Part shown: one piece after another, positions 11,230 through 57,060 of the stretch | Numbering within the stretch: position 1 is the stretch's first letter | How the letters are laid out: each line of letters opens with the position of its first letter | Assembly: GCA_016187515.1 (NCBI GenBank) | Contig: JACPJN010000008.1 | Coordinates: 4,525 to 68,524, forward strand | DNA length: 64,000 nt | From: Candidatus Uhrbacteria bacterium | GTDB taxonomy: Bacteria > Patescibacteriota > Patescibacteriia > GWA2-47-26 | Reading direction: 5' to 3' | The notes under the pieces: generated by a model | The model's database searches: none | Told to the model about the DNA's origin: nothing | What the model saw: the letters and a program-made list of their open reading frames with translations, nothing else | Translations under genes and position numbers: made by a program

Positions 11230-13392
11230 ATGACTAAACAAGAGGCAAAGCAGAGGATTTCCAAATTGCGTCAAGCGATTGATCATCATCGCTATCTTTA
11301 TCATGTGCTGGATCGGCAAGAGATCTCGGAAGCCGCGCTTGACTCGCTTAAGCATGAATTATTTAAGTTGGAGCAGGAGTTTCCGGAATTTATCACTCCG
11401 GATTCGCCAACCCAGCGGGTCGGCGGGGCGCCTTTACCCGAGTTTAAGAAGGTGCCGCATAAGACCCCAATGCTTTCAATGGAAGATGTGTTTACCGCGG
11501 AGGAATTAAGCGAGTGGCTGGCGCGTATTAAGCGGTTATATCCGGCAGGCGCGTATGATTTTTACGCCGAGTTAAAGATGGACGGGCTTGCGGTCTCACT
11601 TATCTATAAACGCGGCGTCCTCGCCGTTGGCTCTACGCGTGGCGATGGGAGAGTGGGGGAGGATGTCACCCAGAATTTAAAGACGATCGAAGCGATCCCG
11701 CTCCGATTACGTATCCCGACGGAGAAGGAGATCAGAGAAATTTTTGCGGATCATAACCCCTCCCAACCTCCCCTTACCTTAAGGGGAGGAGATCGATCAA
11801 TACCCCCTCTTAAGATAAGAGGGGGGAGGGGGAGTTATGAGGCCGCAGGAAAGGCAGTGTATAACAACATCAGGAATGCGCTTGAACATGGCGAGATTGA
11901 AGTGCGCGGCGAGGTGTTCATGCTGAAGAAAACATTTGACGCACTCAATCGCGCACAAAATAAAAAAGGAGAAGAGCCGTTTGCCAATCCGCGCAATGCC
12001 TCCGCCGGTGCGATACGCCAGCTTGATCCGGCGATCAGTGCGTCGCGAAAACTTTCTTTTTTTGGTTATGCGCTTCTTTGCGATCTTGGTTTGACCATGC
12101 ATGCGCAGGAACATGAACTCATGAAATTGCTCGGTGTGCCGATTAATCCTTTGAGCGAGCATTGTGCGACCGTTAATGAAGTTGCTGCATATCAGAAACA
12201 TATTCAGAAAATGCGCGAAAAACTGCCATATTGGACCGATGGGATTGTGGCAGTCGTAAATGATGATCGCACTTTTGAACGGTTAGGCGTGGTCGGCAAA
12301 ACCCCGCGCGGAATCGTGGCATATAAATTCCCGGCGGAGCAGTCAACCACACACGTGGCCGAGGTGCGCTGGCAGGTGGGACGCACTGGAGTGCTCACCC
12401 CCGTGGCGGTGATGGATCCGGTATTTGTGGCCGGTACGACGGTGAGGCACGCGACCCTCCATAATATGGACGAGATTGAGCGGTTGGGGCTCAAGATGGG
12501 GGATACGGTTATTTTGGAAAAAGCCGGAGATATTATTCCGAAGATCATCAAGGTGCTTCCCAAATTGCGGACGGGAAAAGAAAAAGCGATCCAGGCGCCC
12601 ACGCACTGTCCGGTCTGCGCCGCGCGCGTGGAACGTCCCGAGGGAGAGGTGGCCATTCAATGCACGAACAAAAATTGTCCGGCCAAGCACCATGAGCGGC
12701 TGATTCATTTCGTGTCTAGAAAGGCGTTTGACATCGATGGACTGGGAGAAAAGATTGTGAAGCAGCTTATGGATGTTGGTCTTATCTCCACCCCGGCGGA
12801 TATTTTTAAACTGGAAAAAAGCGATCTGGTGGATCTCGAGCGATTCGCCGACAAGTCGGCAGAAAATTTGATTGCCGCCATTGCTAAAGCCCGCGAGATC
12901 AGTTTACCGCGCTTTATTTTTGCCCTCGGAATCAAACATGTTGGTGAAGAGACCGCGGTGGATTTGGCGAAAAGGTTTGGTACGCTAAAGAAGATTCGCG
13001 AGGCCACGTTTGAAGAATTGAATTCGGTTCCGAACATCGGAGAAGTCGTGGCGCAGTCATTACACGAATACTTTTCCGACAAGCACAGCCAAAAGCTGAT
13101 TGACGACTTACTCGCGTCCGGCATCAAAGTTCAAAGCTCTAAGCTCTCTGCCATAAGCCCTAAGCTTCACGGCCTGACGTTCGTTTTGACCGGCGGCCTG
13201 GAATCCATGACCCGCGATGAAGCCAAAGAAAAAATCCGCGATTTAGGCGGCGATATTTCCAGTTCTGTCTCGAAGAATACCGACTATGTTGTGGTTGGCA
13301 GCGAGCCAGGGGATAAACTGGCGCGAGCTAAAAAATTAAATGTAAAAATACTTAACGAGAAGCAATTTCTGGAAATGCTAACGGAAAAGTAA
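11230..13392 (+). CDS. ligA: NAD-dependent DNA ligase LigA carrying an in-frame palindromic element insertion (11752-11839)
   Basis: KMDGLAVSL adenylation motif, Cys4 zinc finger CPVC..C..NCPAK, HhH region, C-terminal BRCT (LTFVLTGGLESMTRDEA). The insertion encodes HNPSQPPLTLRGGDRSIPPLKIRGGRGSY. Confidence 0.9.
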   Translation: MTKQEAKQRISKLRQAIDHHRYLYHVLDRQEISEAALDSLKHELFKLEQEFPEFITPDSPTQRVGGAPLPEFKKVPHKTPMLSMEDVFTAEELSEWLARIKRLYPAGAYDFYAELKMDGLAVSLIYKRGVLAVGSTRGDGRVGEDVTQNLKTIEAIPLRLRIPTEKEIREIFADHNPSQPPLTLRGGDRSIPPLKIRGGRGSYEAAGKAVYNNIRNALEHGEIEVRGEVFMLKKTFDALNRAQNKKGEEPFANPRNASAGAIRQLDPAISASRKLSFFGYALLCDLGLTMHAQEHELMKLLGVPINPLSEHCATVNEVAAYQKHIQKMREKLPYWTDGIVAVVNDDRTFERLGVVGKTPRGIVAYKFPAEQSTTHVAEVRWQVGRTGVLTPVAVMDPVFVAGTTVRHATLHNMDEIERLGLKMGDTVILEKAGDIIPKIIKVLPKLRTGKEKAIQAPTHCPVCAARVERPEGEVAIQCTNKNCPAKHHERLIHFVSRKAFDIDGLGEKIVKQLMDVGLISTPADIFKLEKSDLVDLERFADKSAENLIAAIAKAREISLPRFIFALGIKHVGEETAVDLAKRFGTLKKIREATFEELNSVPNIGEVVAQSLHEYFSDKHSQKLIDDLLASGIKVQSSKLSAISPKLHGLTFVLTGGLESMTRDEAKEKIRDLGGDISSSVSKNTDYVVVGSEPGDKLARAKKLNVKILNEKQFLEMLTEK

Positions 13393-13515: not shown

Positions 13516-14133
13516 ATGCCGCAAAAAAGTAAAAAGAGGAGTCCATCACGCACTCAGCGCATTTTAGCTAAAATTGATCCGGTGCTTACTCCCGCGCGAG
13601 AGGCATTGTATGAACTAAATCTATTTCTCGGAGCCGCTTCCGGATGGCATCCGATGAGTATTAGTGAATACGAAGACCGCCTTGCAGGGCAGCAGTGGCG
13701 TGAAAAGAAGGAGCGAATTCAATATCTCAAAGAACGGAAATGGATTGAAACGAAAAAGATAGGAAAAAAACTGATGGTGCGGCTTACCGAAAAGGGATGG
13801 CAACAGGTGTTGCGCGACCACATACGATGCACAAAAGTTATGTGCAAGGATGGGGTATGCATTCTCGTGATTTTTGATGTTCCGGAATCGCAACGGCATG
13901 TGCGCGATACATTGCGTTGGATTTTGTCGGAGTGTGGTTTTACTATGCTCCAGAAAAGCGTGTGGTACACCAATAAAGACGTACTTGAACCCCTCTGCGC
14001 GCTTCTTCAAGGAGCAAAACTCAATAAGTGGGTACGTATCATTGTAGGTAATGAGTTTCGGCAGTCGATGATAAAAAATGCAGTAGTTCGTCTGCACGCT
14101 AGGCAAAAGTCCGCAAAAAGCTCACGATCGTGA
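13516..14133 (+). CDS. winged-helix domain fused to a Cas2-like C-terminal domain (orphan Cas2 homolog)
   Basis: C-terminal half ILVIFDVPESQRHVRDTLRWILSECGFTMLQKSVWY..VRIIVGNEFRQSMI matches the Cas2 pattern (beta1-FD-V, basic helix, G-F/RxQxSV). N-terminal ~110 aa is wHTH-like (KKLMVRLTEKGWQ). No cas1 or CRISPR array in the window. Confidence 0.45.
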   Translation: MPQKSKKRSPSRTQRILAKIDPVLTPAREALYELNLFLGAASGWHPMSISEYEDRLAGQQWREKKERIQYLKERKWIETKKIGKKLMVRLTEKGWQQVLRDHIRCTKVMCKDGVCILVIFDVPESQRHVRDTLRWILSECGFTMLQKSVWYTNKDVLEPLCALLQGAKLNKWVRIIVGNEFRQSMIKNAVVRLHARQKSAKSSRS

Positions 14134-14144
14134 GCTTTTTGCGG
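14111..14144 (+). terminator. 34-nt perfect palindrome CCGCAAAAAGCTCACGATCGTGAGCTTTTTGCGG overlapping the stop codon of the Cas2-like gene; likely bidirectional terminator
   Basis: Perfect hairpin flanked by A and T runs. Identical copy at 58404-58437. Confidence 0.5.
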
Positions 14145-14436
14145 CAATGGACGGGGTAGTGTGTTTATTGGTGTGGTAGTGTTGCTGATATTTTTACTGG
14201 TAGTGTTGCTCGGTAGAGGTAGCAGAATCACTACTGCGCATTTGTCGCGGTATATTATTTACGATCGTAAATAATATACGGAAGGCGGAAGGATGACATG
14301 GCAAGCCAGTAGAGTCAATTATGGCAAATTGTGGAGAAAGTGGAGAAAAAGAAAACCGAGCGAGGGCTCGGTTGGCGGCGTGCGCGGTGCACGTTCGCCC
14401 TAGTGATACAGTCGTGGGTGGCCTGCCTGCTGTTGA

Positions 14437-15673: not shown

Positions 15674-15967
15674 ATGGCACTCACTAAAGCAGAAGTCCTG
15701 CATATTGCAAAATTGGCGCGGTTGGAGTTGAAGGAAGAAGAGGTGGAGAAATTTCGGACGCAGTTGTCCGAGATTTTGGAGTATGTGGGGCAGTTGCAAA
15801 AGGTGGACACGGCCGGGATTGAGCCGATTTCCCAAATTACGGGTTTGCAAAATGTAGTGCGGGAAGATTTGGTGCGCGGATGTGAACCGGACGTGCGGGA
15901 CGCTATGCTTGAGCAGTTTCCGAAAAGGAGAGGAGATTTGCTCGAGACACTAGGCGTGTTTGAGTAA
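15674..15967 (+). CDS. gatC: Asp-tRNA(Asn)/Glu-tRNA(Gln) amidotransferase subunit C
   Basis: 97 aa. MALTKAEVLHIAKLARLELKEEEVEKFRTQLSEILEYV is typical of GatC. Directly upstream of gatA. Confidence 0.8.
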   Translation: MALTKAEVLHIAKLARLELKEEEVEKFRTQLSEILEYVGQLQKVDTAGIEPISQITGLQNVVREDLVRGCEPDVRDAMLEQFPKRRGDLLETLGVFE

Positions 15968-16090
15968 TTTCTAATTGTTCTAATTATTCTAATTGATCTA
16001 AACAATGACTAATGTCCAATGACCAAAATTGGGATTTGGGGCTTGGGATTTGTTTAGAATAATTAGGTCAATTAGGTGAATTAGATCAAT
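15964..16090. repeat. AT-rich inverted-repeat element (arms ..TTCTAATTATTCTAATTGATCTAAACAA / TTGTTTAGAATAATTAGGTCAATTAGGTGAATTAGA) filling the gatC-gatA intergenic region
   Basis: Second copy at 17547-17658. The left end abuts the gatC stop codon TAA. Confidence 0.6.
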
Positions 16091-16092
16091 TT

Positions 16093-17556
16093 ATGCCAAA
16101 GCTCAACGAACTCACCATCACCGCCGCCCACGAGGGTTTAAAGCAAAAAGAATTTTCGTCCGAGGAATTGACGCGGGCGTGTCTTAGTCGTATTGCCGAG
16201 GTGGATGGCAAGATCGGCGCGTTTTTGACGGTGCTTGATAAAGAGGCGATCGCGCAGGCCAAAGCCGTGGATAAAAACATCAAGGCCGGTTTGATTCCGG
16301 GTCCGCTGGAGGGGATTCCGGTAGCGCTCAAAGATAATATGTTGGTGCAAGGAGTGAAATGCACGGCGTCTTCGCGTATTTTGGAAAACTACGTTGCGGC
16401 GTATGACGCAACAGTGGTTACAAAGCTCAAACGCGCCGGCGCGGTGATTTTAGGTAAGACCAACAATGATGAATTCGCCATGGGATCTTCCGGCGAAAAC
16501 TCGGCATTCAAGGTTACAAAAAATCCTCATGACCCGGAGCGCGTGCCGGGCGGATCCTCGGCTGGATCGGCGGCCGCAGTGGCGGCCCACGAAACAATCT
16601 ACGCGCTGGGATCTGATACGGGCGGCTCCATTCGTCAGCCGGCTGCGTTATGCGGCGTGGTGGGACTGAAGCCCACTTACGGTTCAGTGTCTCGGTATGG
16701 GTTAATTGCTATGTCATCCGGCTTAGATATCATTGGGCCGTTGACCAAAACCGTGGAAGATGCTCGGATTGTGTTTGATGCGATAAGAGGGAAAGACCCG
16801 ATGGATGCGACGACGGTGGAATTGAGAGAATCAGGAATCATGAATTATGAATCAGGGGTTGGGTTGAAAGACGTACGTATCGGTGTACCGAAGGAGTATT
16901 TTATTGATGGGATGGATAAGGAGACTGAAGCGCGGGTACGCGAGGGCATTGCACAGCTTAAAAAACTCGGCGCTCAAATTGTCGAAATTTCTTTACCATA
17001 TTCTCCGTATGCGCTGGCGGTCTATTATATTTTGATGCCGGCGGAGGTGTCGGCGAATTTGGCAAGGTATGATGGAATACGATATGGATATAGTGAATTA
17101 GTTCACAGTCCACAGTCGTCAGTTCACAGTTTGTTGGAGTTGTACGAGAAATCGCGTTCCGAAGGTTTTGGCGACGAGCCAAAGCGGCGGATTATGATCG
17201 GAACGTATGTGCTTTCGGCCGGATACGCCGATGCTTATTATAAAAAGGCACAAGCCGTTCGCACCCTCGTAAAGCGCGATTTTGATGAGGCCTTTTTGAA
17301 AGTGGATTGTATTGCCACTCCAACTACACCAACTCCGGCTTGGCTTATTGGCGAGAAGATGGATGATCCGCTGTCCATGTATCTTGCCGATATTTATACT
17401 GTGTCCGCAAATATCGCGGGGATTCCGGGAATTTCAGTACCTTGCGGCAAGGCGCAGGGGCTGCCGGTGGGGTTGCAAATTCTGGCGCCGCAGTTGCGAG
17501 AGGATGTGGTGTTTAGGGTGGCAGGAGCGTATGAGCAGAGTCGTACAAATTTCTAA
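16093..17556 (+). CDS. gatA: Glu-tRNA(Gln)/Asp-tRNA(Asn) amidotransferase subunit A
   Basis: Amidase signature GGSSGGSAAAVAA and GatA-length protein (487 aa). Confidence 0.9.
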   Translation: MPKLNELTITAAHEGLKQKEFSSEELTRACLSRIAEVDGKIGAFLTVLDKEAIAQAKAVDKNIKAGLIPGPLEGIPVALKDNMLVQGVKCTASSRILENYVAAYDATVVTKLKRAGAVILGKTNNDEFAMGSSGENSAFKVTKNPHDPERVPGGSSAGSAAAVAAHETIYALGSDTGGSIRQPAALCGVVGLKPTYGSVSRYGLIAMSSGLDIIGPLTKTVEDARIVFDAIRGKDPMDATTVELRESGIMNYESGVGLKDVRIGVPKEYFIDGMDKETEARVREGIAQLKKLGAQIVEISLPYSPYALAVYYILMPAEVSANLARYDGIRYGYSELVHSPQSSVHSLLELYEKSRSEGFGDEPKRRIMIGTYVLSAGYADAYYKKAQAVRTLVKRDFDEAFLKVDCIATPTTPTPAWLIGEKMDDPLSMYLADIYTVSANIAGIPGISVPCGKAQGLPVGLQILAPQLREDVVFRVAGAYEQSRTNF

Positions 17557-17658
17557 TTGCTCTAATTATTCTAATTGACCTAAACAATACACAATATCCA
17601 ATGTTCAATCTTGGGATTTGTTTAGAATAATTAGGTCAATTAGGTGAATTAGAAATTT
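17547..17658. repeat. second copy of the AT-rich inverted-repeat element, overlapping the last codons and stop of gatA
   Basis: About 90% identical arms to 15964-16090. Central loop contains TTGGGATTTG, as in the pilD insertion. Confidence 0.6.
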
Positions 17659-18452: not shown

Positions 18453-18564
18453 GAATTAACACCTGCGCAGGTTCACACGAATATCCACGAATAGACGGCC
18501 GCCGGAAGCGACGGTTTCCTGCGCTGCTCTGGCCAGGCGGCCTTACAAATGAACACGAATAATC
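18453..18564 (+). repeat. ~110-nt element with three CACGAATA direct repeats flanking a GGCCGCC..GGCGGCC stem-loop; inverted second copy at 60074-60189
   Basis: Alignment of 18453-18564 with the reverse complement of 60074-60189 shows conserved flanks and outer stem with a divergent loop. Confidence 0.5.
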
Positions 18565-23262: not shown

Positions 23263-23420
23263 AGACCCCCTCTCACTCCCCCTTGAAAAGGGGTAGAAAA
23301 CGGCGGGACCCCCTCTAACTCCCCCTCGGAGAGGGGGAGAAGCGATCCGATTTCCTCCCCTTACCAAGGGGAGGTTAGGAGGGGTCTAACCGAGAGGGGG
23401 AGATCAGGAGGGGGTGGGAG
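23263..23420. repeat. two adjacent copies of the family-2 GC-rich palindromic element (GACCCCCTCTCACTCCCCCTTGAAAAGGGG.. / ..CCTCTAACTCCCCCTCGGAGAGGGGGAG..TTTCCTCCCCTTACCAAGGGGAGGTTAGGAGGGGTC)
   Basis: Intergenic, between the PGI stop and the cyclase gene. Same family as 50733-50810 and 58918-59000. Confidence 0.65.
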
Positions 23421-28292: not shown

Positions 28293-28364
28293 TCCGGGGT
28301 GGCGCAGCGGTAGCGCAGCTCCCTGTTAAGGAGTTGGTCGTGGGTTCGAATCCCACCCCCGGAG
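28293..28364 (+). tRNA. tRNA-Asn (anticodon GTT)
   Basis: Manual cloverleaf: acceptor TCCGGGG/CCCCGGA, D arm GCGC-AGCGGTA-GCGC, anticodon arm GCTCC-CTGTTAA-GGAGT, T arm GTGGG-TTCGAAT-CCCAC, discriminator G. 72 nt. Confidence 0.85.
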
Positions 28365-28510
28365 CCTGAAACTTACTATGTTCCATGTATATATCATCCA
28401 AAATCTTACTCGTGGTACGCGTTATGTGGGTAGTGCCGAGGATGAGGAATCCCACTCTCGGAGGCATAGTGAGAATTAAATTTCAATATTCTTCACTCGA
28501 CCCCCAAGCC

Positions 28511-28557
28511 CAACCGGGCTGATTTTTGTTTTTGAGGTGGTAGAGTGGGGGAATATG
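28511..28557 (+). promoter_or_regulatory. conserved box: small terminator hairpin (AGCCCAACCGGGCT) + TTGATT-17nt-TAGAGT promoter-like spacing, ending GGGGGAATATG (probable leaderless start). Copies at 29551-29599, 29841-29913, 31165-31213; variant at 28753-28809
   Basis: Four to five near-identical copies. Each precedes either an S element or a cassette gene ATG. Confidence 0.4.
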
Positions 28558-28580
28558 TTTGAAATACAAAACAAAGTGCA

Positions 28581-28752
28581 TTCTGCAATTCTGCGGAATC
28601 GCAGACCAAGAGGTGGGGAGGTGGGGGTCAACTCAATATCACCACCGCATCCCCCAAATGTCATCCCCGAGCGGCATCGGGGATCCAGTCAATTTCCCCT
28701 CTCCGACCGAGGTCGGAGGGATTAAGGCCTGCCTGCGCAGGCAGGGGTGGTT
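28581..28752 (+). repeat. S element copy 1: ~170-nt GC-rich structured repeat with four predicted hairpins
   Basis: TCTGCGGAATCGCAGA, TCCCCGAGCGGCATCGGGGA, CTCCGACCGAGGTCGGAG, GCCTGCCTGCGCAGGCAGG. About 90-95% identical to 29621-29820 and 30891-31089. Confidence 0.7.
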
Positions 28753-28806
28753 TTACTGCTCAAAGAGGGTTTACTTCAATGCTAAAAAGTGGTAGGATGG
28801 GGGAAT

Positions 28807-29415
28807 ATGAATCAGGAGGAAATTAAAAAGTTCTTGGAGTCATTTCAATCAAGGCAAGACAGGACTATCGTGATTGTTGATTATGGAAATGTAGAAAAGT
28901 GGAAAAATAGCTTAGGTTGGAAAGTTGGTATTAAGCAGTTGGGTAATCTTGTAAAACACTTTTCCAGCGGCAAGCAATTTTTACGTAGATTCTACTACGG
29001 GTCAGATTATGGGAAGAATGAGCGATCAACTTTGCGGTCCGAGTGGTCACGCTCGGCTACCGATCGCGCAAAGATGAACCGTTTTGAGGTGGTGACGAAA
29101 CGCGTCAAATGTATGCATAGCCAATCCAGCAAATATGGCTTTGAAAAGAAATGCGACTTAGATGTGGAGATGACCGTTGATCTTATCAAGGAGCGTGATA
29201 ATTATGACACGATTATTATCTTTTCAGGTGACGGAGACCTAATGTATGCAATTCGATATTTACGCGACATGTATGACAAGAAGTGTATTGTGTTTGGAGC
29301 CCGCGGACATATTGGGAGAGAGGTATTTGATGCGAAAGTTGAGGGGTTTGTAAATAATATTTTGTTTGCTGATGACTTTGAATATCGCCTTAATGACGCA
29401 CGATTTCGATGCTAA
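28807..29415 (+). CDS. NYN-domain (LabA-like, PIN-fold) putative RNase; cassette gene 1
   Basis: IVIVDYGNV ... CDLDVEMTVD ... IIIFSGDGDLMYA acidic motifs of NYN/LabA domains. Start taken at the ATG of the conserved box (ORF-track GTG at 28789 is in frame). Confidence 0.65.
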   Translation: MNQEEIKKFLESFQSRQDRTIVIVDYGNVEKWKNSLGWKVGIKQLGNLVKHFSSGKQFLRRFYYGSDYGKNERSTLRSEWSRSATDRAKMNRFEVVTKRVKCMHSQSSKYGFEKKCDLDVEMTVDLIKERDNYDTIIIFSGDGDLMYAIRYLRDMYDKKCIVFGARGHIGREVFDAKVEGFVNNILFADDFEYRLNDARFRC

Positions 29416-29620
29416 AAATCAAAAACCCGCCCAAATAGGCGGATTTTGATCAAAATGGGGTAAGCCCAAAGCTTACATTAATAATGTATCAAGCAAGCGC
29501 TGATTTGTCAATAGTTTTATCCACATGCGGTTTTTGGTTGAAAATCAGGCCATTCGGGCTTGAGTTTTTGTTTTTGAGGTGGTAGAGTGGGGGAATATGG
29601 CAATGCACAATTGAACACTC

Positions 29621-29855
29621 GGTCTGCGATTCGCGCGAATCGCAGACCGAGAGGTGGGGAGGTGCGGGTCAACTCAATATCACCACCGCATCCCCCAAAT
29701 GTCATCCCCGAGCGGCATCGGGGATCCAGTCAATTTCCCCTCTCCGACCGAGGTCGGAGGGATTAAGGCCTGCCCGCCAATCGCCTGACGGCTCAAGCCG
29801 GATGGCAGGCGGGGGTGGTTGCCAACCGCCCGCCCCAAGCCCCAATCGGGCTTGA
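29621..29855 (+). repeat. S element copy 2 (with an extra 3' extension carrying a GGTTGCCAACC hairpin and a terminator-like AGCCCCAATCGGGCT + T-run)
   Basis: Aligns with copies 1 and 3. An indel in the GCCTGCC..GGCAGG arm. Confidence 0.7.
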
Positions 29856-29910
29856 TTTTTTGTTTTTCAAGGGTTTACTTCAATGCTAAAAGGTGGTAGA
29901 GTGGGGGAAT

Positions 29911-30627
29911 ATGAATGAGGAGGAAAAAATAAGAGAGATGGCCATCGAGTTTGCGAAGCGAAATAAAAAGCGTATCGCAAAAGTACTGACTGATCCAAAG
30001 GTGTATGCGCCGGATCCTAATCCGATATCGGTGTTTATGGCTGGTTCTCCCGGCGCGGGGAAAACGGAATTGTCAAAAAACCTGATTGATCTTTTGGAAC
30101 GGGAACGAGAGCGCCGCGTCATTCGTATTGATGGCGATGAAGTCCGTCCGCTTATCCCCGGATATACCGGGGTAAATTCAAACTTATTTCATGGCGCTAT
30201 ATCTCTTATCGTTGAAAAAATGCAGGATTTGGCGTTGCATCAAGGTCAAACGTTTATATTGGACGGAACCATGGCAAATACTAATAAAGCAGTTGATAAT
30301 GTGCAGAGGTCGCTCGATAAGAATCGCACGGTTATAGTGTTTTATGTTTACCAACGACCCGAAGTCGCTTGGCAGTTTACACAAGCTCGCGAAGCGAAAG
30401 AAGGAAGGAATATACCCAAGTCGGCATTTATTGAACAATTCTTTGGTGCAAAGGATACCGTGCGCCGCGTTCATGAATTATTTCCAAGGAACGTAATGAC
30501 GTTTCTCGTAAAAAAGGATTTCAAAAATCGGACAGTTGAACATGTTAAGCTTGAGCATTCCGGTGCCGCGCTTGACACATATATCGGGGAGACGTATACT
30601 AAAGATGAACTTGAGCAACACTTATGA
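29911..30627 (+). CDS. zeta-toxin-like P-loop kinase (AAA/Zeta_toxin family); cassette gene 2
   Basis: Walker A MAGSPGAGKTEL, Walker B-like FILDGT, and overall similarity to zeta toxin / UDP-GlcNAc kinases. Confidence 0.6.
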   Translation: MNEEEKIREMAIEFAKRNKKRIAKVLTDPKVYAPDPNPISVFMAGSPGAGKTELSKNLIDLLERERERRVIRIDGDEVRPLIPGYTGVNSNLFHGAISLIVEKMQDLALHQGQTFILDGTMANTNKAVDNVQRSLDKNRTVIVFYVYQRPEVAWQFTQAREAKEGRNIPKSAFIEQFFGAKDTVRRVHELFPRNVMTFLVKKDFKNRTVEHVKLEHSGAALDTYIGETYTKDELEQHL

Positions 30628-30806
30628 AATTATTCAATATTTTTAAAAAACCAACTGAAGCCAAGCGTTCAGGGGGTTTTTCCGATTTCTTTTTGCATGC
30701 AAACGAAGAAGAAAAACGCAGAGTTATTGAAGAGGCCGCGCGGCGGGCCAACGAGGATCAACGCCGTCTGGTTGAACAATACGAAGCCCAAAAGAAAACC
30801 GCCTAA
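30624..30806 (+). CDS. small charged protein (60 aa) translationally coupled (ATGA overlap) to the zeta-like kinase; possible cognate antitoxin/partner
   Basis: Overlapping stop/start. Highly charged, helical sequence EEEKRRVIEEAARRANEDQRRLVEQYEAQKK. Confidence 0.35.
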   Translation: MKLFNIFKKPTEAKRSGGFSDFFLHANEEEKRRVIEEAARRANEDQRRLVEQYEAQKKTA

Positions 30807-30821
30807 CCCGGGCGGTTTTTT
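30795..30821 (+). terminator. rho-independent terminator (ACCGCC-TAACCCG-GGCGGT + TTTTTT)
   Basis: Stem-loop plus T-run; contains the stop codon of the small ORF. Confidence 0.6.
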
Positions 30822-30890
30822 AGTACATCATAGAAACAGCCATGCTCACAGCTCACAAATCACCAAGCTCACAAAGGGCTTGATTTTTTC

Positions 30891-31089
30891 TATTCTGCGA
30901 TTCTGCGGAATCGCAGACCAAGAGGTGGGGAGGTGCGGGTCAACTCAATGTCATCACCGCGCCCCCCAATGTCATCCCCGACCTGATCGGGGATCCAGTC
31001 AATTTCCCCTCTCCGACCGAGGTCGGAGGGATTAAGACCTGCCCGCCAATCGCCTGACGGCTCAAGCCGGATGGCAGGCGGGGGTGGTT
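30891..31089 (+). repeat. S element copy 3, followed by a half copy of the family-1 palindromic element (31111-31150) and the conserved box
   Basis: Aligns with copies 1-2. A frame-breaking difference relative to copy 1 shows it is non-coding. Confidence 0.7.
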
Positions 31090-31210
31090 GCAAACAATCC
31101 GCCAATCAATTCCTCCCCTTAAGGTAAGGGGAGGCGAGGAGGGGTTATGCTTCCGTCTCAATCCCAATCGGAGTTGATTTTTTGTTTTTGAGGTGGTAGG
31201 ATAGGGGAAT

Positions 31211-38385: not shown

Positions 38386-38557
38386 CTCATCCTTACAAAC
38401 TCCAGTATTTAAGGATGAAAGTGGTCATACAGATTTTTGCACTGGATAGAGGGCCTTGCGCCGGATTCCGTGGCCTGCCCCCACACCAATTTTAGAAATA
38501 TTGGTGTGGGGGCAGGCCGCGAGGCATTTGTGCTTATATATTTTTTCCGTGGATGAT
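38386..38557 (+). repeat. R2 element copy 1 (~170 nt: CCTTAAAT..ATTTAAGG hairpin, then a 20-bp perfect stem GCCTGCCCCCACACCAAT-TTTAGAAAT-ATTGGTGTGGGGGCAGGC, then a T-run)
   Basis: Direct repeat of 39769-39939 (~90% identical). A partial third copy of its first arm at 38703-38740, followed by a partial S element at 38744-38790. Confidence 0.6.
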
Positions 38558-38915
38558 CATGTGAAATCTCTCCCACCCCCTCTAACTCCCCCTCGGGCAG
38601 GGGGAGAAATTTTATTGGGCAGGAGGGGAAAGTGATAACCGAATACTCGCCAAAAGATTTTAAAAATTTTTAATCCCACACCCCAAACTCCCAACCCCAA
38701 ACCATCCTTAAATTCTCAAGTATTTAAGGATAAAAAATCTCCATTCTGCGATTCCCTCCTACGGCGGACAGGCGCGCGAATCGCAGAATGCCGCAGTGGA
38801 CAGGCACACGTTAAGCGGGGTAGGCAGGAATCCAAAACGCGTCACCATTGGCGCGTTTGTGCATATACTTGACATTTTCCTTCATTTATGAAACAATGTC
38901 TTCAGGAGGAAAACA

Positions 38916-39623
38916 ATGGAAAATCGTTCATTTTCATTTGATACATACCAGGCCACACATCCAAAGACCGATGCGGTGTGGAAAGCACTTTGCGCCGGCC
39001 CGCTTCGTGCGGCAATTCAAGCCACGTTGAAGCTGTTCGTCGAAGATGCTTGTCGGTTTTTTGTCATCCATGCGGGGCAAGTACAGACCCTATCGCATGA
39101 TCAGCGCATTGAATTGTACTACCTTCATTACATTAGCCCTTTGTGTTCGCCGGGAAGCCTTCCAGATACCAAACCCCGCGAGGTATTCTCACGGGTACTC
39201 ATTGCCGCGATTACTGAATTCGTGGATTTGGAATCCGGACGTACATTCCCCGGCGCCAAGAGTCGCAAAGTTACCTTAGGCGAAGTCCATGAAACAAGTT
39301 TCGGGGGTGATGCCTCGGGTGAGAATGGTATAAGGATTGTGGATGCGGAAATTGAATTACTGCGGCATGTGTGGGATGAACTCTGCCAGCTAAAGGAGGT
39401 ATCGGATCTTGAGGATCGGACCGCAGGGGCGCCGGTTCTGAATTTTCCGTCGTCGTTGGATAGCGAATTCTGCGCGGAGGAGTTTTCCAGCGTGTGTATG
39501 GGTTCGTTCCTGCGTGTCCTTGTGGACAATATTCTCCACCTGTATGATTATTTCGGTGATCCGCAGTACGTGCGAGAAATGGCGGAGCAAGCGGCGCGCG
39601 AGGAAGCCAGATCTGGTAACTAG
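38916..39623 (+). CDS. hypothetical protein (235 aa), GC-rich, flanked by R2 direct repeats
   Basis: Strong RBS GGAGGAAAACA before the ATG. No recognisable motif. Confidence 0.4.
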   Translation: MENRSFSFDTYQATHPKTDAVWKALCAGPLRAAIQATLKLFVEDACRFFVIHAGQVQTLSHDQRIELYYLHYISPLCSPGSLPDTKPREVFSRVLIAAITEFVDLESGRTFPGAKSRKVTLGEVHETSFGGDASGENGIRIVDAEIELLRHVWDELCQLKEVSDLEDRTAGAPVLNFPSSLDSEFCAEEFSSVCMGSFLRVLVDNILHLYDYFGDPQYVREMAEQAAREEARSGN

Positions 39624-39768: not shown

Positions 39769-39939
39769 CTCATCCTTAAATTCTCAAGTATTTAAGGATG
39801 AAAGTGGTCATCAGATTTTTACATTGTATAGACGGCCTTGCGCCGGATTCCGTGGCAAGCCCCCACACCAATTTTAGAAATATTGGTGTGGGGACAGGCC
39901 GCGAGGCAGTTGTGCCTATACATTTTTTCCGTGGATGAT
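39769..39939 (+). repeat. R2 element copy 2, preceded by a C10 homopolymer (39751-39760)
   Basis: Aligns with 38386-38557. Confidence 0.6.
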
Positions 39940-44211: not shown

Positions 44212-46200
44212 ATGGCCATACCTTACGCGCGGGATTTGAATCGCGAACAATTAGCAGTGGTGCAAGGGGGCGACGGCCCCTGTTTGGTCTTGGCCGGAGC
44301 CGGAACCGGAAAGACGCGCACCATTACCTATCGGGTCGCGTATTTACTGGAGCAGGGGGTGGCGCCCGGGCGCATTCTGCTCGTAACTTTTACCAACAAA
44401 GCCGCGCGGGAAATGCTCCGCAGGGTGGAACTCTTGATGGGTGCCCGGCCGCAAGGGCTCTGGGGCGGGACCTTTCACCATGTGGGTCACGCGCTCCTGC
44501 GCCGTTACGGGTCGCGCATCGGAATTCCGCCGTCATTTACAATTTTGGACGCGGATGACAATGCCGAATTGCTGAAAGCCGTAATGGCGGCCAGCGGCCG
44601 CGGTAAAAAAAGTGATCAGTACTTTCCGGCGCCGGACGTGGTGGAAAATCTGATCAGTTTCGCGGCCAATAGCGGACGTCCGCTGCCGGAGCTTATTTTA
44701 GAGTGGCTGCCGCGGCATGCTGATAAAACTCCGGAACTGCTGCGTATCGCGGCCGCTTATGAGCAAAGAAAACGTGAGCGGAATGTCGTCAGTTTTGATG
44801 ATCTCTTGGCTTTTTGGCTGCGCATTTTACGGGAGCGTCCGGAAGTGCGTGAAAAGCTGGGCGGAAAATTTGACTACATCTTAATTGATGAATATCAAGA
44901 TACGAATCGCCTGCAAGGGATGATTGTGGAGGAATTGGCGCGGGGCGCGAAAAATGTTTTGGTCGTCGGCGATGACGCCCAGTCCATCTATGCTTTCCGC
45001 GCCGCCACGGTTGAAAATATTATGCGCTTTCCGGAGGTCTTTCCCGGAGCGCGAACCTTCCGGCTGGTGCAGAATTATCGTTCCACCCAGGCGATTTTGG
45101 ATCTTGCCAATGCCGTAATTATTTGCAATCGCCGGCAGTTTGAAAAAGAACTGCGTACCGTGCGTGGCCGCGGATCTACACCGGAGCTCATCGGCTGCGC
45201 GGATAATCGCGAGGAAGCCCGATTTATTGTTGATCGCGTGCTGGAATTTCATAGTGAAGGCGAAACACTTTTGGAGAGCGCGGTATTATTCCGAGCCGCG
45301 TATCATGGCATGCAGATTGAACTGGAACTTCAAAAACGCGGCGTGCCCTACATTATTCGGGGCGGAATTCGGTTTTTTGAGCAGGCGCACATTAAGGATG
45401 TGGTGGCGTATTTGCGCGTGGTCGCCAATCCGCTAGACGAATTAGCGTGGCAGCGCATGCTTAAAATGGAAGAGGGGATCGGCGATAAAACGGCGGCAGT
45501 GATTGTAGAAAAGTTGATTCATAACGCCCCCCCGCCCCCTCTTACCTTAAGAGGGGGAGCGGCTGACAATCCTCCCCTTAAGATAAGGGGAGGTGCAGGA
45601 GGGGTTATGAAAAGCGAAGCAGGATTAGCAAAGGTGCTCCGGCGCGTGGATCACCTTAAGACCGTGCCGCAGGTTGATAAAATGATTTCGTATGTGCTGG
45701 AGGCGTTTTATGCGGATTATGCTCAAGCGCAGTTCGAAAATGCGACGGAGCGGCTGGAGGATCTTGAGCAACTGGCCTTGTTTGCGGCCTCCTATGAAAA
45801 ATTGGAGGAATTTTTAGCCGATGCGACGCTTTCGGAAGGATTTCGCGGTGATCGCGCCGCGGCAACGCCGCAGGATGCGGATAAAGAATATCTGGTGCTC
45901 TCGACCATCCATCAGGCCAAAGGTCTGGAATGGAAAAATGTATTTGTGGTCGGACTGGTTGACGGACAATTTCCGCATCACAAATCCCGCGCGCGCCGCG
46001 AGGAGCTGGAAGAAGAACGCCGTTTATTTTATGTGGCGATTACCCGCGCGCGGGAGCGGCTCTACTTAACTTATCCGCTAACAAGCTTAGCGGCGCTGGG
46101 AACCGCGATACACCAGCCGTCGCTGTTTGTGCGCGAACTTGATCCGGAATTATATCAAGAGATCCGGAATGAGGAAACCGTGATTGAATATGCGGACTAA
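44212..46200 (+). CDS. pcrA: ATP-dependent DNA helicase PcrA/UvrD family with an in-frame palindromic element insertion (45520-45609)
   Basis: Walker A AGAGTGKTRT, motifs TFTNKAAREM, DEYQDTN, and a C-terminal UvrD domain. Insertion encodes HNAPPPPLTLRGGAADNPPLKIRGGAGGVM. Confidence 0.85.
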   Translation: MAIPYARDLNREQLAVVQGGDGPCLVLAGAGTGKTRTITYRVAYLLEQGVAPGRILLVTFTNKAAREMLRRVELLMGARPQGLWGGTFHHVGHALLRRYGSRIGIPPSFTILDADDNAELLKAVMAASGRGKKSDQYFPAPDVVENLISFAANSGRPLPELILEWLPRHADKTPELLRIAAAYEQRKRERNVVSFDDLLAFWLRILRERPEVREKLGGKFDYILIDEYQDTNRLQGMIVEELARGAKNVLVVGDDAQSIYAFRAATVENIMRFPEVFPGARTFRLVQNYRSTQAILDLANAVIICNRRQFEKELRTVRGRGSTPELIGCADNREEARFIVDRVLEFHSEGETLLESAVLFRAAYHGMQIELELQKRGVPYIIRGGIRFFEQAHIKDVVAYLRVVANPLDELAWQRMLKMEEGIGDKTAAVIVEKLIHNAPPPPLTLRGGAADNPPLKIRGGAGGVMKSEAGLAKVLRRVDHLKTVPQVDKMISYVLEAFYADYAQAQFENATERLEDLEQLALFAASYEKLEEFLADATLSEGFRGDRAAATPQDADKEYLVLSTIHQAKGLEWKNVFVVGLVDGQFPHHKSRARREELEEERRLFYVAITRARERLYLTYPLTSLAALGTAIHQPSLFVRELDPELYQEIRNEETVIEYAD

Positions 46201-47494
46201 GCCAACCGTTTATCTTGACCATGCGGCGGCAACGCCGCTGGATCCGCGCGTGGCGGAAGCAATGGTGCCATACTTACGCGCAGAATATGGCAATCCATCC
46301 GCGCTTTACGCACTGGGACGTGCCGCACGCGAGGCAGTGGATAACGCGCGGGAGACCGTGGCGCGCATTTTGAATTGCCGCGCGGCGGAGATTGTATTTA
46401 CCGGCAGTGGAACCGAGTCGGACAATTTGGCGGTGTTTGGCGTGGCAAAAAACTACGCACATAACTCACCCCATCCCTCCCTTACCTCCGACGCCCTGAA
46501 GGGTCGGAGTCCGACCGAAGCGTCGGACTTAGGGGAGGGGGCCGATACAAATACCCCCCTTAGGGTAAGGGGGGGCAGGGGGGTTACGAAGGGCCACCTT
46601 ATCACCACCGCCATTGAACACCATGCCGTGCTCAATCCCTGCCGCGCGCTTGAAAAAGAGGACTATGCAGTAACTTATTTGAAAGTGGAACATGATGGAT
46701 TGATAACCCCGGAGCAACTTAGAGCCGCAATTCGGCCGGACACCGTGTTAATCTCAATAATGTATGCAAATAACGAGATCGGCACCATTGAGCCAATCGC
46801 GGCGCTGACCCGCGCGGTACGGGCGTGGAAAAAAGAACACGGTAGAAAGGAAAACGACCCGCCGTTTTTTCACACGGACGCGTGTCAGGCCGCCGGATAT
46901 CTGGACATGGATGTGGGGCGACTGGGTGTGGACTTGCTCACACTGAATGCCAGTAAAATCTACGGCCCAAAAGGTGTGGGAGCATTGTATGTGCGGCGAG
47001 GAATAAAATTGCAACCGTGCATTTACGGCGGCGGACAAGAGTTTGGGTTGCGCTCCGGCACAGAAAACGTGGCGGCGATTGTGGGGATGGGGAAGGCGCT
47101 GGAGTTGGTGGTGAGATTAAGAGACCAAGAGATTAAGAGATTAAGTGGGTTGCGGGATCGGTTGATTGCGGGGATTTTGGCGCGTGTGGAAGGTGCGGAA
47201 TTGAATGGACACCCCACGCAACGCCTGCCCAATAATGTGAATATCTCAATTTCCGGCATTGAGGGCGAGGCCATGCTATTCTATTTGGATGAACATGGAA
47301 TCTCGGCCGCTACCGGTTCGGCTTGCGAGTCCGCCGGTCCGGATCCATCGCATGTTGTTCAGGCGCTAGGAAAATCCCGCGACGCCGCGCGATCCAGTAT
47401 TCGCTTTACCCTGGGGCGCGGGACAATGAAGGACGACGTTGAGTATGTGTTGGAGGTATTACCGGGAATAGTTCAAAAATTGCGCCACAAATAA
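46184..47494 (+). CDS. cysteine desulfurase (NifS/IscS/class V aminotransferase) with a 128-nt in-frame composite palindromic insertion (46460-46587)
   Basis: LDHAAATPLDPRV N-terminus and the PLP-lysine region NASKIYGPKGVGALYVRR. Insertion encodes HNSPHPSLTSDALKGRSPTEASDLGEGADTNTPLRVRGGRGVT. Confidence 0.8.
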   Translation: MNMRTKPTVYLDHAAATPLDPRVAEAMVPYLRAEYGNPSALYALGRAAREAVDNARETVARILNCRAAEIVFTGSGTESDNLAVFGVAKNYAHNSPHPSLTSDALKGRSPTEASDLGEGADTNTPLRVRGGRGVTKGHLITTAIEHHAVLNPCRALEKEDYAVTYLKVEHDGLITPEQLRAAIRPDTVLISIMYANNEIGTIEPIAALTRAVRAWKKEHGRKENDPPFFHTDACQAAGYLDMDVGRLGVDLLTLNASKIYGPKGVGALYVRRGIKLQPCIYGGGQEFGLRSGTENVAAIVGMGKALELVVRLRDQEIKRLSGLRDRLIAGILARVEGAELNGHPTQRLPNNVNISISGIEGEAMLFYLDEHGISAATGSACESAGPDPSHVVQALGKSRDAARSSIRFTLGRGTMKDDVEYVLEVLPGIVQKLRHK

Positions 47495-47602
47495 TTTGTA
47501 ACGATTGTTCAACGGTCTCAACTGTGCGGGTTTGACGCGGTTTTTTTGTTATGATACATTAAAATCAGAAGGAAGTTCTTTCAATAAACCGAGGAGGCCA
47601 AC

Positions 47603-47743
47603 ATGAACAGTTGGGAAGTGGCACCAGTAGCCGTGCTTGCCAGCACGCTCGTAATTGTCGTGTTTCTGGCGGTCGGTATTGCCGCGTGGGAGGCGCATGG
47701 GTGGTGGGAACGTCGGAAACAGCGGCGTGCGGGATGGAACTGA
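47603..47743 (+). CDS. small membrane protein (46 aa, one TM) with strong SD GAGGAGG
   Basis: SD 8 nt upstream. TM helix VAVLASTLVIVVFLAVGIAAW. GC-rich local composition. Confidence 0.3.
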   Translation: MNSWEVAPVAVLASTLVIVVFLAVGIAAWEAHGWWERRKQRRAGWN

Positions 47744-47758
47744 ATCTCGGAGGCGATC

Positions 47759-47986
47759 ATGACTGAAAAACAATGGATGCGGGTACGCGGTCCGATCTTT
47801 CTCATGATGCTCGGCGGATTGATCTGGGGGATCATCAAGATCCAACTGGGTCCACATCGCGAGATCTTCCGGAGCTTTCTGTGGGAGACGATGGTTGTGT
47901 TAGCCCTGGTGTTCGCACTATTGAACGTTCCGTTAACCTTGCTCGCGTGGCACGAGGCAAAGCGGCGCACGGCGCGGCAAATTTAG
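47759..47986 (+). CDS. small membrane protein (75 aa, two TM) with SD GGAGG; overlaps the previous ORF region (16-nt gap)
   Basis: SD plus hydrophobic helices. Same GC-rich mini-island. Confidence 0.3.
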   Translation: MTEKQWMRVRGPIFLMMLGGLIWGIIKIQLGPHREIFRSFLWETMVVLALVFALLNVPLTLLAWHEAKRRTARQI

Positions 47987-48113
47987 CCATGTACCTTCGA
48001 ACAGTCGGTTCTCTCGCGGAGCCGGCTCTTTTCTTTTTTTGTGAAATTTGGTAGTGTGTTGGCATAACCCCTCCTCGCCTCCCCTTACCTTAAGGGGAGG
48101 AAATTGTTAGAGT

Positions 48114-49337: not shown

Positions 49338-49401
49338 GGGAGGGAGACGATCGCGATCCCCCTCTTAAGGTACGAGGGGGTAGGGGGAGTTATGAATTAA
49401 T

Positions 49402-52240: not shown

Positions 52241-52350
52241 TTCAATAAAACTCCTCCCCTTAAGATAAGGGGAGGTTGGGAGGGGTTATGACAATTGACA
52301 TAACTCCCCCTGCCCCCTCTTACCTTAAGAGGGGGGATGCATTGGCAAAT

Positions 52351-53805: not shown

Positions 53806-53910
53806 GATAAGGGGAGGTCAGGAGGCGTTATGAAAAGTTCATAACTCACCCCAGCCCTCTCTTATCTTTCCGCCCGAGGCGGATCCGCCTCGGGCGGAAA
53901 GAGAGGGGGA
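53793..53910. repeat. cluster of palindromic elements (family 1: TTCCTCCCCTTAAGATAAGGGGAGG..GTTATG / CATAACTCACCCCAGCCCTCTCTTATCTT, plus GGSASGG-type CCGCCCGAGGCGGATCCGCCTCGGGCGG)
   Basis: Read directly from the sequence. Provides the tatD stop codon. Confidence 0.6.
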
Positions 53911-54008
53911 TTGATAAAAAAAAGCCGCCGGATCCGGAGGGGGGCGCTGCGCGGATTGACTCACGCGCATCCGAATCCGACGGCGGGGTGTAGAAGGAGC
54001 GGGGCGGG

Positions 54009-54407: not shown

Positions 54408-54419
54408 AGAACATAAGCT

Positions 54420-56948: not shown

Positions 56949-57060
56949 CTCCTCCCCTTAGGGTAAGGGGAGGTTGGCCTGCCTGCGCAGGCAGGGAGGG
57001 GTTACGAGATGTGCATGGCTCATAACCCACCCTACCCTCCCTTATCTTAAGGGAGGGGAT
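56949..57060. repeat. intergenic palindromic element pair (family 1 arms CCTCCCCTTAGGGTAAGGGGAGG / CATAACCCACCCTACCCTCCCTTATCTTAAGGGAGGGG) enclosing GCCTGCCTGCGCAGGCAGG, the same hairpin found in the S elements
   Basis: Read directly from the sequence. Confidence 0.6.

Follow-up and report, generated by a model that had tools for sequence, protein, structure and literature searches.

REP-like palindromic elements in frame in essential genes of an uhrbacterial genome, and their association with DUF559 proteins

We analysed a stretch of 64,000 nucleotides ("the window") from a Candidatus Uhrbacteria bacterium (assembly GCA_016187515.1, contig JACPJN010000008.1, positions 4,525 to 68,524 of the forward strand), a member of the Candidate Phyla Radiation (CPR). 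The window carries about 19 copies of short palindromic elements that belong to at least two related families, F1 and F2. Eleven copies lie inside genuine genes whose reading frame stays open: ligA, uvrD/pcrA, a cysteine desulfurase gene, thiI, metG (three copies), tatD, a family 2 glycosyltransferase (GT2) gene and a Wzy-like gene. The explanation we favour, at a probability of roughly 0.75, is that these elements are selfish palindromic DNA resembling REP (repetitive extragenic palindromic) sequences and their inverted doublets (REPINs), that copies arriving in the right frame are tolerated within genes, and that they spread possibly by means of a DUF559 protein.

Structure of the elements

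Copies were located by searching for repeats, by scanning for hairpins and with an nhmmer profile made from five copies. The window contains 37 occurrences of the core 12-mer when up to two mismatches are allowed; dinucleotide-shuffled sequences contain 4.2 ± 2.1, and none of 100 shuffles reached 37. All copies listed in a preliminary description of this DNA were recovered at their places, some with shifted ends (52251-52338, 53794-53867, 56951-57060). The list itself was incomplete: a second family (F2 and a variant of it) had been missed at seven sites, MetRS bears three inserts, and inserts are present in TatD, ThiI and the Wzy-like protein as well.

The basic unit is a REP-like half of about 40 nt, in which a conserved tail, (TCA)TAAC followed by CCCYCCC in F1, precedes a perfect 10-bp hairpin; in units of F1 type the hairpin takes up 23 nt and the tail about 15 nt. 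The 5' arm of the hairpin is entirely pyrimidine and the 3' arm entirely purine. A full element (75-110 nt) consists of two inverted units around a spacer of 4-40 nt. This bipartite form is not obligate, as units also occur singly and in inside-out pairs.

The layout of F1 is TCATAAC-hairpin-spacer-hairpin-GTTATGA and that of F2 is GACCCCCTC...GGAGGGGTC. The F1 copy in ligA (11752-11839) falls into the blocks CATAACCCCTCCCAACCTCCCCTTACCTTAAGGGGAGG-agatcgatcaata-CCCCCTCTTAAGATAAGAGGGGG-GAGGGGGAGTTATG; written out with each hairpin in parentheses, it reads CATAAC-CCCTCC-CAA-(CCTCCCCTTA cct TAAGGGGAGG)-13 nt-(CCCCCTCTTA aga TAAGAGGGGG)-GAGGGGGA-GTTATG. F2 is correspondingly GACCCCCTCT-(CTCCCCCT cggaa AGGGGGAG)-spacer-(CCTCCCCTT ttg AAGGGGAGG)-TTAGGAGGGGTC, and a third family, F3, found in relatives of the host, is CCCCTCACC...(CCCTCTCCC/GGGAGAGGG)...GGTGAGGGG. 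There are thus at least three families built on one common plan. Across 32 full copies the termini are TCATAAC...GTTATGA, a terminal inverted repeat of 7 nt. Target-site duplications are missing, with zero matching flank bases in 27 of the 32, and no flanking target motif was found around these copies. The preliminary description had the intragenic copies begin with CATAAC and end with GTTATG; the beginning holds throughout, but the GT2 and cysteine desulfurase copies end in GTTACG. Their shared orientation, also pointed out there, is uninformative in an element that is so nearly a perfect palindrome.

Folded as single strands, full elements form an outer stem that encloses two hairpins, with z-scores of -3.5 to -6.4 relative to shuffles. 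A tRNA was the sole match to Rfam above gathering thresholds. Matches to miRNA precursors at relaxed thresholds were weak and reflect generic hairpins only. Readings as CRISPR, intein or intron were discarded on anatomical grounds: the spacers are irregular, the elements are too short and the frame stays open.

The palindromy appears to be maintained at the level of DNA and not of protein. At the three stem pairs left free in the pattern used for the cross-phylum scan described below, 97-99% of the matches listed have Watson-Crick pairs, versus 54-85% expected if the two positions were independent. G.T pairs are nearly missing there, which is what a need for pairing in both DNA strands would produce. 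Between the window and the related lineage L195/L196, the F1 copies at the same site of the MetRS gene are 88% identical, versus 72% for the surrounding gene.

Second-order mini-palindromes such as CCTGCCTGCGCAGGCAGG and TCCGCCCGAGGCGGATCCGCCTCGGGCGGA are nested within the hairpin loops or tails of some elements (46488-46528, 53868-53900 and 56976-56993, and also in loci L013 and L107). A CCTGCC..GGCAGG motif recurs within F1 copies of Nitrospirota genomes, and the nested CCTGCC..GGCAGG may be a separate tiny mobile palindrome aimed at the elements.

Reading frame and predicted disorder

All six full F1 copies have a single open forward frame, CAT AAC and onward, and the five internal copies are all read in it, so that the common frame noted earlier stands. 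Arms that are all pyrimidine or all purine hold no stop codon in any frame on either strand. The stop codons of F1 sit in the TTAAG and TAAC motifs of loop and tail, which explains why a single frame is tolerated, as had been proposed from the TAA in the core. F2 copies have two to four of the six frames open. The F1 copy at the 3' end of thiI is read in another frame; there the open reading frame (ORF) ends at the first TAA and the native C-terminus is replaced.

The encoded peptides are rich in Pro, Ser and Leu and then in Gly, Arg and Glu, and are about 25-43 residues long; the conservation of frame suggests that they are translated. In an AlphaFold model of MetRS (predicted TM-score 0.80), exactly three internal segments have a local confidence score (pLDDT) below 50 and no secondary structure (residues 74-92, 270-300 and 432-449). 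They correspond to the three inserts, and each is located between confidently folded parts. The model thus predicts that the inserts are disordered surface loops, in keeping with the earlier expectation.

Insertion sites in orthologues and sister lineages

LigA and MetRS were identified by homology, as were UvrD/PcrA, the class-V aminotransferase (cysteine desulfurase), ThiI, TatD, GT2, Wzy_C and CvpA; the six hosts named in the preliminary description (LigA, MetRS, UvrD/PcrA, the class-V aminotransferase, ThiI and GT2) were named correctly. Its central claim, that repeated palindromes are inserted in frame in essential genes, is supported, and the segments are missing from orthologues of unrelated lineages and of several close relatives. 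Residues 162-221 of LigA have no aligned counterpart in E. coli LigA (2owo). In MetRS the three stretches that are extra or unalignable relative to solved structures coincide exactly with the three elements, and the cysteine desulfurase shows a clean 40-residue insertion between residues that are neighbours in PDB 9wep. A search of TatD against the PDB at E <= 1e-40 gave no match.

The inserts are polymorphic among close relatives, at 62-77% identity. Their MetRS proteins vary from 490 to 587 aa, about 500 aa being typical, with inserts gained or lost at the three sites. The LigA site carries F1 in three lineages, only the right half in one (P0246), an unrelated palindrome of a different family in one (P0247) and nothing in several (the insert is missing in P0244, P0249 and P0251). 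Two syntenic neighbourhoods of related Uhrbacteria (L195/L196 and L197/L198) were compared with the window one site at a time. The cysteine desulfurase site is occupied by F1 in the window and by an F3-type element in L196, and is empty in L197; the TatD site has F2 in the window and F3 in L195, and is again empty in L197; and the GT2 site has F1 in the window, F2 in L195 and F3 in L197. UvrD carries F1 in both the window and L197, the latter copy being another sub-variant. The site at 48263-48304 in thiI has no insert in L196 and a different insert in L197, and presence/absence or family replacement among relatives, which for these sites are at 71-77% identity, is also seen at the Wzy site. 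DNA folding indicated that every alternative insert at the compared sites is itself a palindromic element. That different families sit at one codon-level site in sister lineages suggests a preference for targets that are already occupied.

The same F1 copy in MetRS occurs in two independent JGI assemblies from different samples, which shows that the inserts are not assembly artefacts. In another member of the Uhrbacteria (L021 2460-5342, JACQSD010000076) the valyl-tRNA synthetase has an F3-type insert (TSPQPSPKGRGRKSPLLIGEGEGEV), which indicates that in-frame elements in aminoacyl-tRNA synthetases are common in this clade.

Distribution across phyla

One genome per GTDB species was scanned with an exact pattern of the 23-nt F1 hairpin, for which about 4-5 matches were estimated by chance. 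At least 114 stretches matched. Hosts among the matches listed include Nitrospirota, Geobacter/Desulfuromonadales, other "Deltaproteobacteria", Dehalococcoidia, Gammaproteobacteria, Myxococcota, Kapaibacteria and many Patescibacteria. Nearly all of these matches bear the (T)CATAAC-YCCYCC tail and many have the full bipartite form; outside the window, 106 half copies and 64 full copies were counted among them. The elements are therefore not a feature particular to CPR genomes, since the F1 unit with its termini is present in many non-CPR phyla. Neighbouring genes in the non-CPR loci (histidine kinases, GGDEF proteins, pilus ATPases) are typical of their phyla, which makes mis-binning an unlikely cause of this spread.

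The position of the elements relative to genes differs between groups. We counted a full copy as "intragenic" if it lay in an ORF with at least 50 codons on each side. By this definition 8 of 10 full copies in the window are intragenic and, among the matches listed, 7 of 15 in other CPR genomes and 3 of 46 in non-CPR genomes, where most are intergenic. The difference between other CPR and non-CPR genomes is significant with the window excluded (Fisher p = 0.0012).

Phages were considered as a possible vector and set aside, since the F1 hairpin occurs on only eight viral or viral-like IMG/VR contigs (L201-L208), some with two or three copies. In a Desulfuromonadaceae contig (L016 2700-4230, JAQUHA010000012) at least four full F1 copies lie in tandem with a period of about 220 nt and near-identical spacers, adjoining a DUF559 gene.

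Association with DUF559 proteins

ORFs were clustered over about 750 kb around 180 elements in the 114 listed loci. A single small protein family recurs beside the elements across phyla, the other recurrent clusters being housekeeping genes, and it was assigned to PF04480 (DUF559) with E = 1e-32 to 1e-36. The junction has the form (hairpin)-GGGGGnGTT-ATG...DUF559...stop-(TAAC-CCCCC)-(hairpin), in which the GTTATG of the element provides the start codon. This is the inside-out geometry that is also seen in three gene-less pairs of the window (52251-52338, 53794-53867 and 56951-57060).

The association was also tested in reverse. From at least 581 confirmed DUF559 homologues we took the best 80 metagenomic loci, picked by protein similarity alone. 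A perfect C-rich/G-rich hairpin lies within 80 nt of a gene end in 62 of the 80 (78%) and at both ends in 32, and hairpin density is 5.6 per kb near gene ends versus 0.58 per kb elsewhere. The architecture persists across diverged lineages, and hairpin type follows the DUF559 clade: in one clade 12 of 13 members have TTA..TAA (F1-type) hairpins and in another all 10 members have TTT..AAA hairpins. Among 2000 permutations of the labels, none reached the similarity observed among DUF559 proteins that share a hairpin type. CPR genomes commonly carry the subfamily, with examples from Zambryskibacteria and Giovannonibacteria flanked by F1-type halves.

These results make DUF559 the best-supported candidate for the cognate enzyme of element spread, an assignment to which we would give about an even chance. 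Somewhat less probable, and put forward tentatively, is a broader proposal: that DUF559, a small Vsr-like nuclease of very wide occurrence, is the dedicated partner of a large REP-like superfamily lacking the GTAG tag, with one hairpin type per clade, and that such REPtron-like systems, in contrast to those of RAYT and REPIN, have moved between phyla and would be remodelling essential proteins of gene-dense CPR genomes by loop insertion and swapping. Our literature search, which left out most subscription journals, found no tie between DUF559 or Vsr-like nucleases and REP-type repeats.

Proposed mechanism and alternatives

A mechanism consistent with these observations would run as follows. 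An element that inserts in the right frame would be read through as a Pro/Ser-rich and then Gly/Arg-rich disordered peptide in a surface loop. In a tightly packed CPR genome there is scant intergenic room, so that the surviving copies would be mostly those in frame in permissive loops; others would survive at the ends of genes by providing a stop codon. A DUF559 nuclease (Vsr-like, of the PD-(D/E)xK type) encoded elsewhere in the genome would act in trans, analogous to the REP-associated tyrosine transposase (RAYT) of REPtrons. It might cut at the junction of hairpin and tail. Elements would then be dispersed, or exchanged at sites already occupied, as the break is repaired or copied from copies elsewhere. 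The mode of spread is inferred.

Several facts weigh against this reading or parts of it. The PcrA element peptide aligns with 30 residues of the 2B domain and leaves no net gap, so that at this site the element may have replaced a host segment instead of being a pure insertion. F1 copies in UvrD are only 66% identical between lineages, so that elevated conservation of the DNA is not universal; they belong to different sub-variants, whose two arms have changed in a coordinated way. That the inserts are translated is a prediction from their conserved frame. As regards the enzyme, Pfam searches of 30 ORFs and a tblastn search with DUF559 yielded only restriction-modification, toxin-antitoxin and housekeeping genes, and neither the 64-kb window nor 60 kb of syntenic DNA of relatives yielded a DUF559 gene or a transposase. 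The orientation of the halves around DUF559 genes is variable, with no fixed transposon-like structure. The link is one of guilt by association, and the match of clade and hairpin could partly reflect shared ancestry of the hosts. DUF559 has no demonstrated activity, and its sole solved structure (3HRL) is described as an "endonuclease-like protein".

The main alternative to DUF559 as cognate enzyme is a homing-type relation, in which DUF559 is a free-standing endonuclease that inserts in the linker between halves while the elements are its landing sites and spread by other means. The DUF559/Vsr clan does include a group I intron homing endonuclease (PMC3424549), the gene-less inside-out pairs of the window resemble empty sites, and the use of element GTTATG as start codon would suit such a gene. 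We nevertheless regard this alternative as unlikely. It leaves the multiplication of elements and the swapping of families at sites unexplained, half orientation around the gene varies, and the match between clade and hairpin agrees both with this reading and with DUF559 as the enzyme that disperses the elements.

It is distinctly unlikely that the elements are classical REPINs moved by a RAYT (a Y1/HUH tyrosine transposase) encoded elsewhere, with the DUF559 link incidental. Two inverted hairpin units, singlets and the lack of target-site duplications fit REPIN architecture, and intragenic REP dimers of RAYT-associated families are on record (PMC3733652). However, the elements have no GTAG tag, their conserved tail being TAAC/GTTA; no Y1 transposase-like family recurs over the clustered ORFs; and hairpins flank DUF559 in 78% of homologues that were sampled independently of the elements. 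A search for RAYT confined to the window and the ORFs of the 114 listed element-bearing loci found none.

The idea that the inserts are modules beneficial to the host, either as functional peptides or as regulatory structures in mRNA or DNA, and are kept by host selection appears very unlikely. It would account for the orthologous MetRS copy being more conserved than the gene around it, for the stop codons and Shine-Dalgarno-ATG signals that elements give at gene boundaries, and for the recurrence in other phyla of an enrichment in repair and aminoacyl-tRNA synthetase genes (PMC3733652). Yet sister lineages have the same sites empty or filled by unrelated families that encode different peptides, disorder is predicted for the peptides, the scarcity of G.T pairs favours pairing of DNA over pairing of RNA, and non-CPR copies are mostly intergenic.

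Integron attC sites are bounded by the core sites RYYYAAC and GTTRRRY; they form one R''-L''...L'-R' hairpin with extrahelical bases, are recognised by IntI and stand in cassette arrays beside intI. Elements with TAAC...GTTA termini resemble them, and one could regard the elements as attC-like sites (R'' ..TAAC, R' GTTA..) that an integron integrase moves, with DUF559 as a common cassette. The 75-110 nt length fits, genes lie between full elements, the outer stem is compatible and many host phyla are known to carry integrons. This reading is highly improbable all the same, because half units and inside-out pairs are common, in-frame copies in essential genes clash with the geometry of cassette insertion, no integrase recurs near the elements in the 114 listed loci, and the hairpin sequence is conserved across phyla whereas attC sites are conserved in structure and not in sequence.

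A reading of the segments as artefacts of assembly or as ordinary loops of low complexity, and not as mobile DNA, is effectively refuted: the source is metagenome-assembled and repeats can cause misassembly, but frames and downstream homology are intact in the host genes of the 11 intragenic copies, independent assemblies from different samples share an insert, and at least 114 loci in public genomes carry the F1 unit.

Relation to known palindromic elements

The palindromic elements of the window have a close parallel in the Rickettsia palindromic elements (RPEs), which are repeats found in frame in unrelated housekeeping genes of a reduced genome, and also between genes, with no known transposase (PMC10969869; PMC3733652). 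The parallel drawn in the preliminary description holds at the level of mechanism, as both add a peptide compatible with the fold, but there is no relationship of sequence. RPE-1 measures about 150 bp, whereas the window elements are 75-130 nt, GC-rich and made of homopyrimidine and homopurine arms. RPE-1 to RPE-10 are confined to Rickettsia, while F1 spans many phyla. RPE-4 and RPE-6 have been classed as CGTC-tagged REPs (PMC3733652), whereas the F1 tag is TAAC/GTTA. Judged by descriptions of composition and motif, F1 (CCYCCCCTTA..TAAGGGGRGG, with an uhrbacterial host) does not belong to the RPEs.

Di Nocera et al. (2013; PMC3733652) described GTAG- and CGTC-tagged REPs and REP dimers in frame within genes of several phyla. 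The dimers encode 20-30 aa, notably in UvrD/Rep helicases, DNA ligase and tRNA synthetases; different REPs occupy about one site in recB; and the CGTC REPs have no known transposase. The window elements share with REPs and REPINs the short hairpin with an unpaired conserved tail, the occurrence as singlets and inverted dimers without target-site duplication, the supply of stop codons to flanking ORFs and the in-frame dimers in the same gene classes. They differ in their tag, which in the 32 full copies is (TCA)TAAC/GTTA(TGA) and not GTAG or CGTC, and in the intragenic fraction of 8 of 10 in the window, far above what is usual for REPs. As in REPtrons, an associated enzyme gene is flanked by repeats in variable organisation, but the gene encodes a DUF559 PD-(D/E)xK nuclease and no RAYT was found near any copy. 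The proposed REPtron-like unit is a gene that is directly flanked by repeats and whose clades match the repeat type, and both properties were found for DUF559. REPIN-RAYT systems are described as specific to lineages and inherited vertically; F1, in contrast, is nearly the same in different phyla.

MITEs, or miniature inverted-repeat transposable elements, have terminal inverted repeats and target-site duplications made by a DDE transposase, typically measure 100-400 bp, and include some in-frame fusions (PMC10969869). Like the MITEs Correia, ERIC, Chunjie and Nezha, F1 is small, non-coding, repeated and foldable; it differs in lacking target-site duplications, in having half units that occur independently, and in that no insertion sequence with matching ends was found in the 114 listed loci. 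The Chunjie MITE of Geobacter was considered as a possible identity of F1 and is ruled out by its size (178-235 bp) and direct repeats (PMC10969869). Integron attC sites resemble the elements in length, in being imperfect palindromes, in their TAAC...GTTA-like ends and in having genes between successive sites; they are distinguished from window-type elements by the latter's halves, inside-out pairs, conserved hairpin sequence, sites in essential genes and lack of an integrase nearby.

No paper that we found prints the 12-mer sequences, and a search that left out most subscription journals revealed no TAAC/GTTA-tagged family, no such elements in CPR/Patescibacteria and no cross-phylum REP family. 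This agrees with the earlier statement that the phenomenon is not established in CPR genomes. The phenomenon as such is nevertheless less novel than was implied there, in-frame REP dimers in repair, ligase and tRNA synthetase genes being already documented outside Rickettsia (PMC3733652). In-frame palindromic insertion is therefore known, and the family, the CPR host, the cross-phylum range and the DUF559 link look new. We consider the phenomenon to be of a known kind (REP/REPIN-like), with a different tag, a range across phyla, an in-frame load in the CPR genome that is unusually high and a candidate partner enzyme that is not a RAYT; the DUF559 role is an inference.

If the elements are what we propose, translated selfish DNA in essential proteins, as described for Rickettsia, extends to the CPR, and may account for many unexplained short insertions in CPR proteins and for problems of annotation and alignment in CPR metagenome-assembled genomes. 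One REP-like family that is near-identical across distant phyla is at odds with the idea that REP systems are tied to lineages and passed on vertically. A true link to DUF559 would give that family a testable function and supply a candidate mobiliser for REP families without a RAYT, and if occupied sites are preferred targets, swapping would be a new route of protein-loop evolution.

Copies in the window

The full F1 copy in ligA (ORF 11230-13392), at 11752-11839, encodes HNPSQPPLTLRGGDRSIPPLKIRGGRGSY (aa 175-204), and the predicted peptide across the junction of host and insert includes EIFADHNPSQPPLTLR. Full F1 copies also lie in the 2B-domain region of uvrD/pcrA (45520-45609; ORF 44212-46200), in the cysteine desulfurase gene (46460-46587; ORF 46184-47494), where two extra hairpins are nested at about 46488-46528, and in the GT2 gene (54678-54769; ORF 54420-55238). 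The thiI gene (ORF 48114-49337) is associated with three copies: an F1 left half, made of the CATAAC tail and one hairpin, 13 nt 5' of the start codon (48063-48100); an F2 half within the gene (48263-48304) that encodes RPPLNLPLEKGEKI; and a full F1 at the 3' end (49307-49394) that, in its other frame, gives the last nine or so residues (ITLPSPPLS) and the TAA stop at 49335-49337. In metG (ORF 50525-52240) insert 1 is a full F2 (50732-50810, aa ~70-96), insert 2 an F2 variant (51335-51415, aa ~271-297) and insert 3 a full F1 (51800-51888, aa 426-455).

Between metG and cvpA, an F1 right half (52251-52291, ending in GGAGGGGTTATG) and an F1 left half (52299-52338) are separated by 7 nt. This inside-out pair (52251-52338) is probably intergenic, and its left half upstream of the true cvpA start, because CvpA orthologues begin with MITPFD (at about 52351 of the window). 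The ATG of the element was considered as the cvpA start and rejected, as the orthologues start 21 codons further downstream. The tatD gene (ORF 52858-53805) contains a full F2 in the opposite orientation (53207-53283) and is followed by an inside-out pair (53794-53900), an F1 right half and then a left half with the palindrome TCCGCCCGAGGCGGATCCGCCTCGGGCGGA nested in its loop; the TAA stop of tatD falls within the CTTAAG of the right half. A further intergenic inside-out pair (56951-57060) consists of a right half with nested CCTGCCTGCGCAGGCAGG and then a left half. The Wzy_C/O-antigen-ligase-like gene (ORF 58089-59681) carries a full F2 at 58919-59001. Remaining intergenic copies are an F1 right half upstream of radC (31211) at 31111-31150, an F2 half (23264-23301) together with a full F2 (23307-23387) at 23264-23387, and an F2 half at 38574-38611.

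The interval from tatD to the GT2 gene (53806-54419, about 615 nt) starts with an inside-out element pair, is missing from both related genomes and contains a minus-strand ORF of 132 aa (54009-54407) with no Pfam match. This interval may represent a small insertion that was brought in at the site of an element. Between the cysteine desulfurase gene and thiI, relatives have genes for a peroxiredoxin (AhpC-TSA) and an Fe-superoxide dismutase, whereas the window has only about 620 nt (47495-48113) with no convincing gene.

Other repeats and islands

Right after a tRNA gene (28293-28364), about three tandem units of ~1.04-1.27 kb occupy 28500-31210. Conserved leaders of 80-155 nt and a TTTTTGTTTTTGAGGTGGTAGAGTGGGGGAATATG motif precede differing small genes, namely a NYN domain gene (28789), a Zeta toxin gene (29893) and an unassigned ORF (30697), and the region resembles an array of cassettes at a tRNA that serves as an integration hot spot. 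The segment 32000-38400 is an island of low GC content (0.37-0.40, versus ~0.52 elsewhere) with a Phd/YefM antitoxin, an 800-aa N6-methylase/Eco57I-like fusion, a type I specificity subunit and two ORFs without Pfam match; it is probably a horizontally acquired restriction-modification island.

Several further repeats were observed. Two 100% identical copies of a perfect palindrome of 36 nt, CCGCAAAAAGCTCACGATCGTGAGCTTTTTGCGG, which has no relation to F1 or F2, lie 44 kb apart (14111-14146 and 58403-58438). A 128-nt direct repeat (38430-38557 and 39812-39939, 92% identical), with an internal palindrome of 53 nt, flanks an ORF without Pfam match (38916-39623), and a 46-nt repeat with a ATCCTTAAAT..ATTTAAGGAT hairpin occurs three times (38375, 38690 and 39758). 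An AT-rich 73-nt repeat (85% identical) lies on either side of an amidase gene (16093-17556), at 15966-16038 and 17548-17658, the downstream copy forming a 51-nt inverted repeat. Finally, the arms of a 91-nt inverted repeat (18471-18561 and 60082-60172) are 81% complementary and lie 41.5 kb apart.

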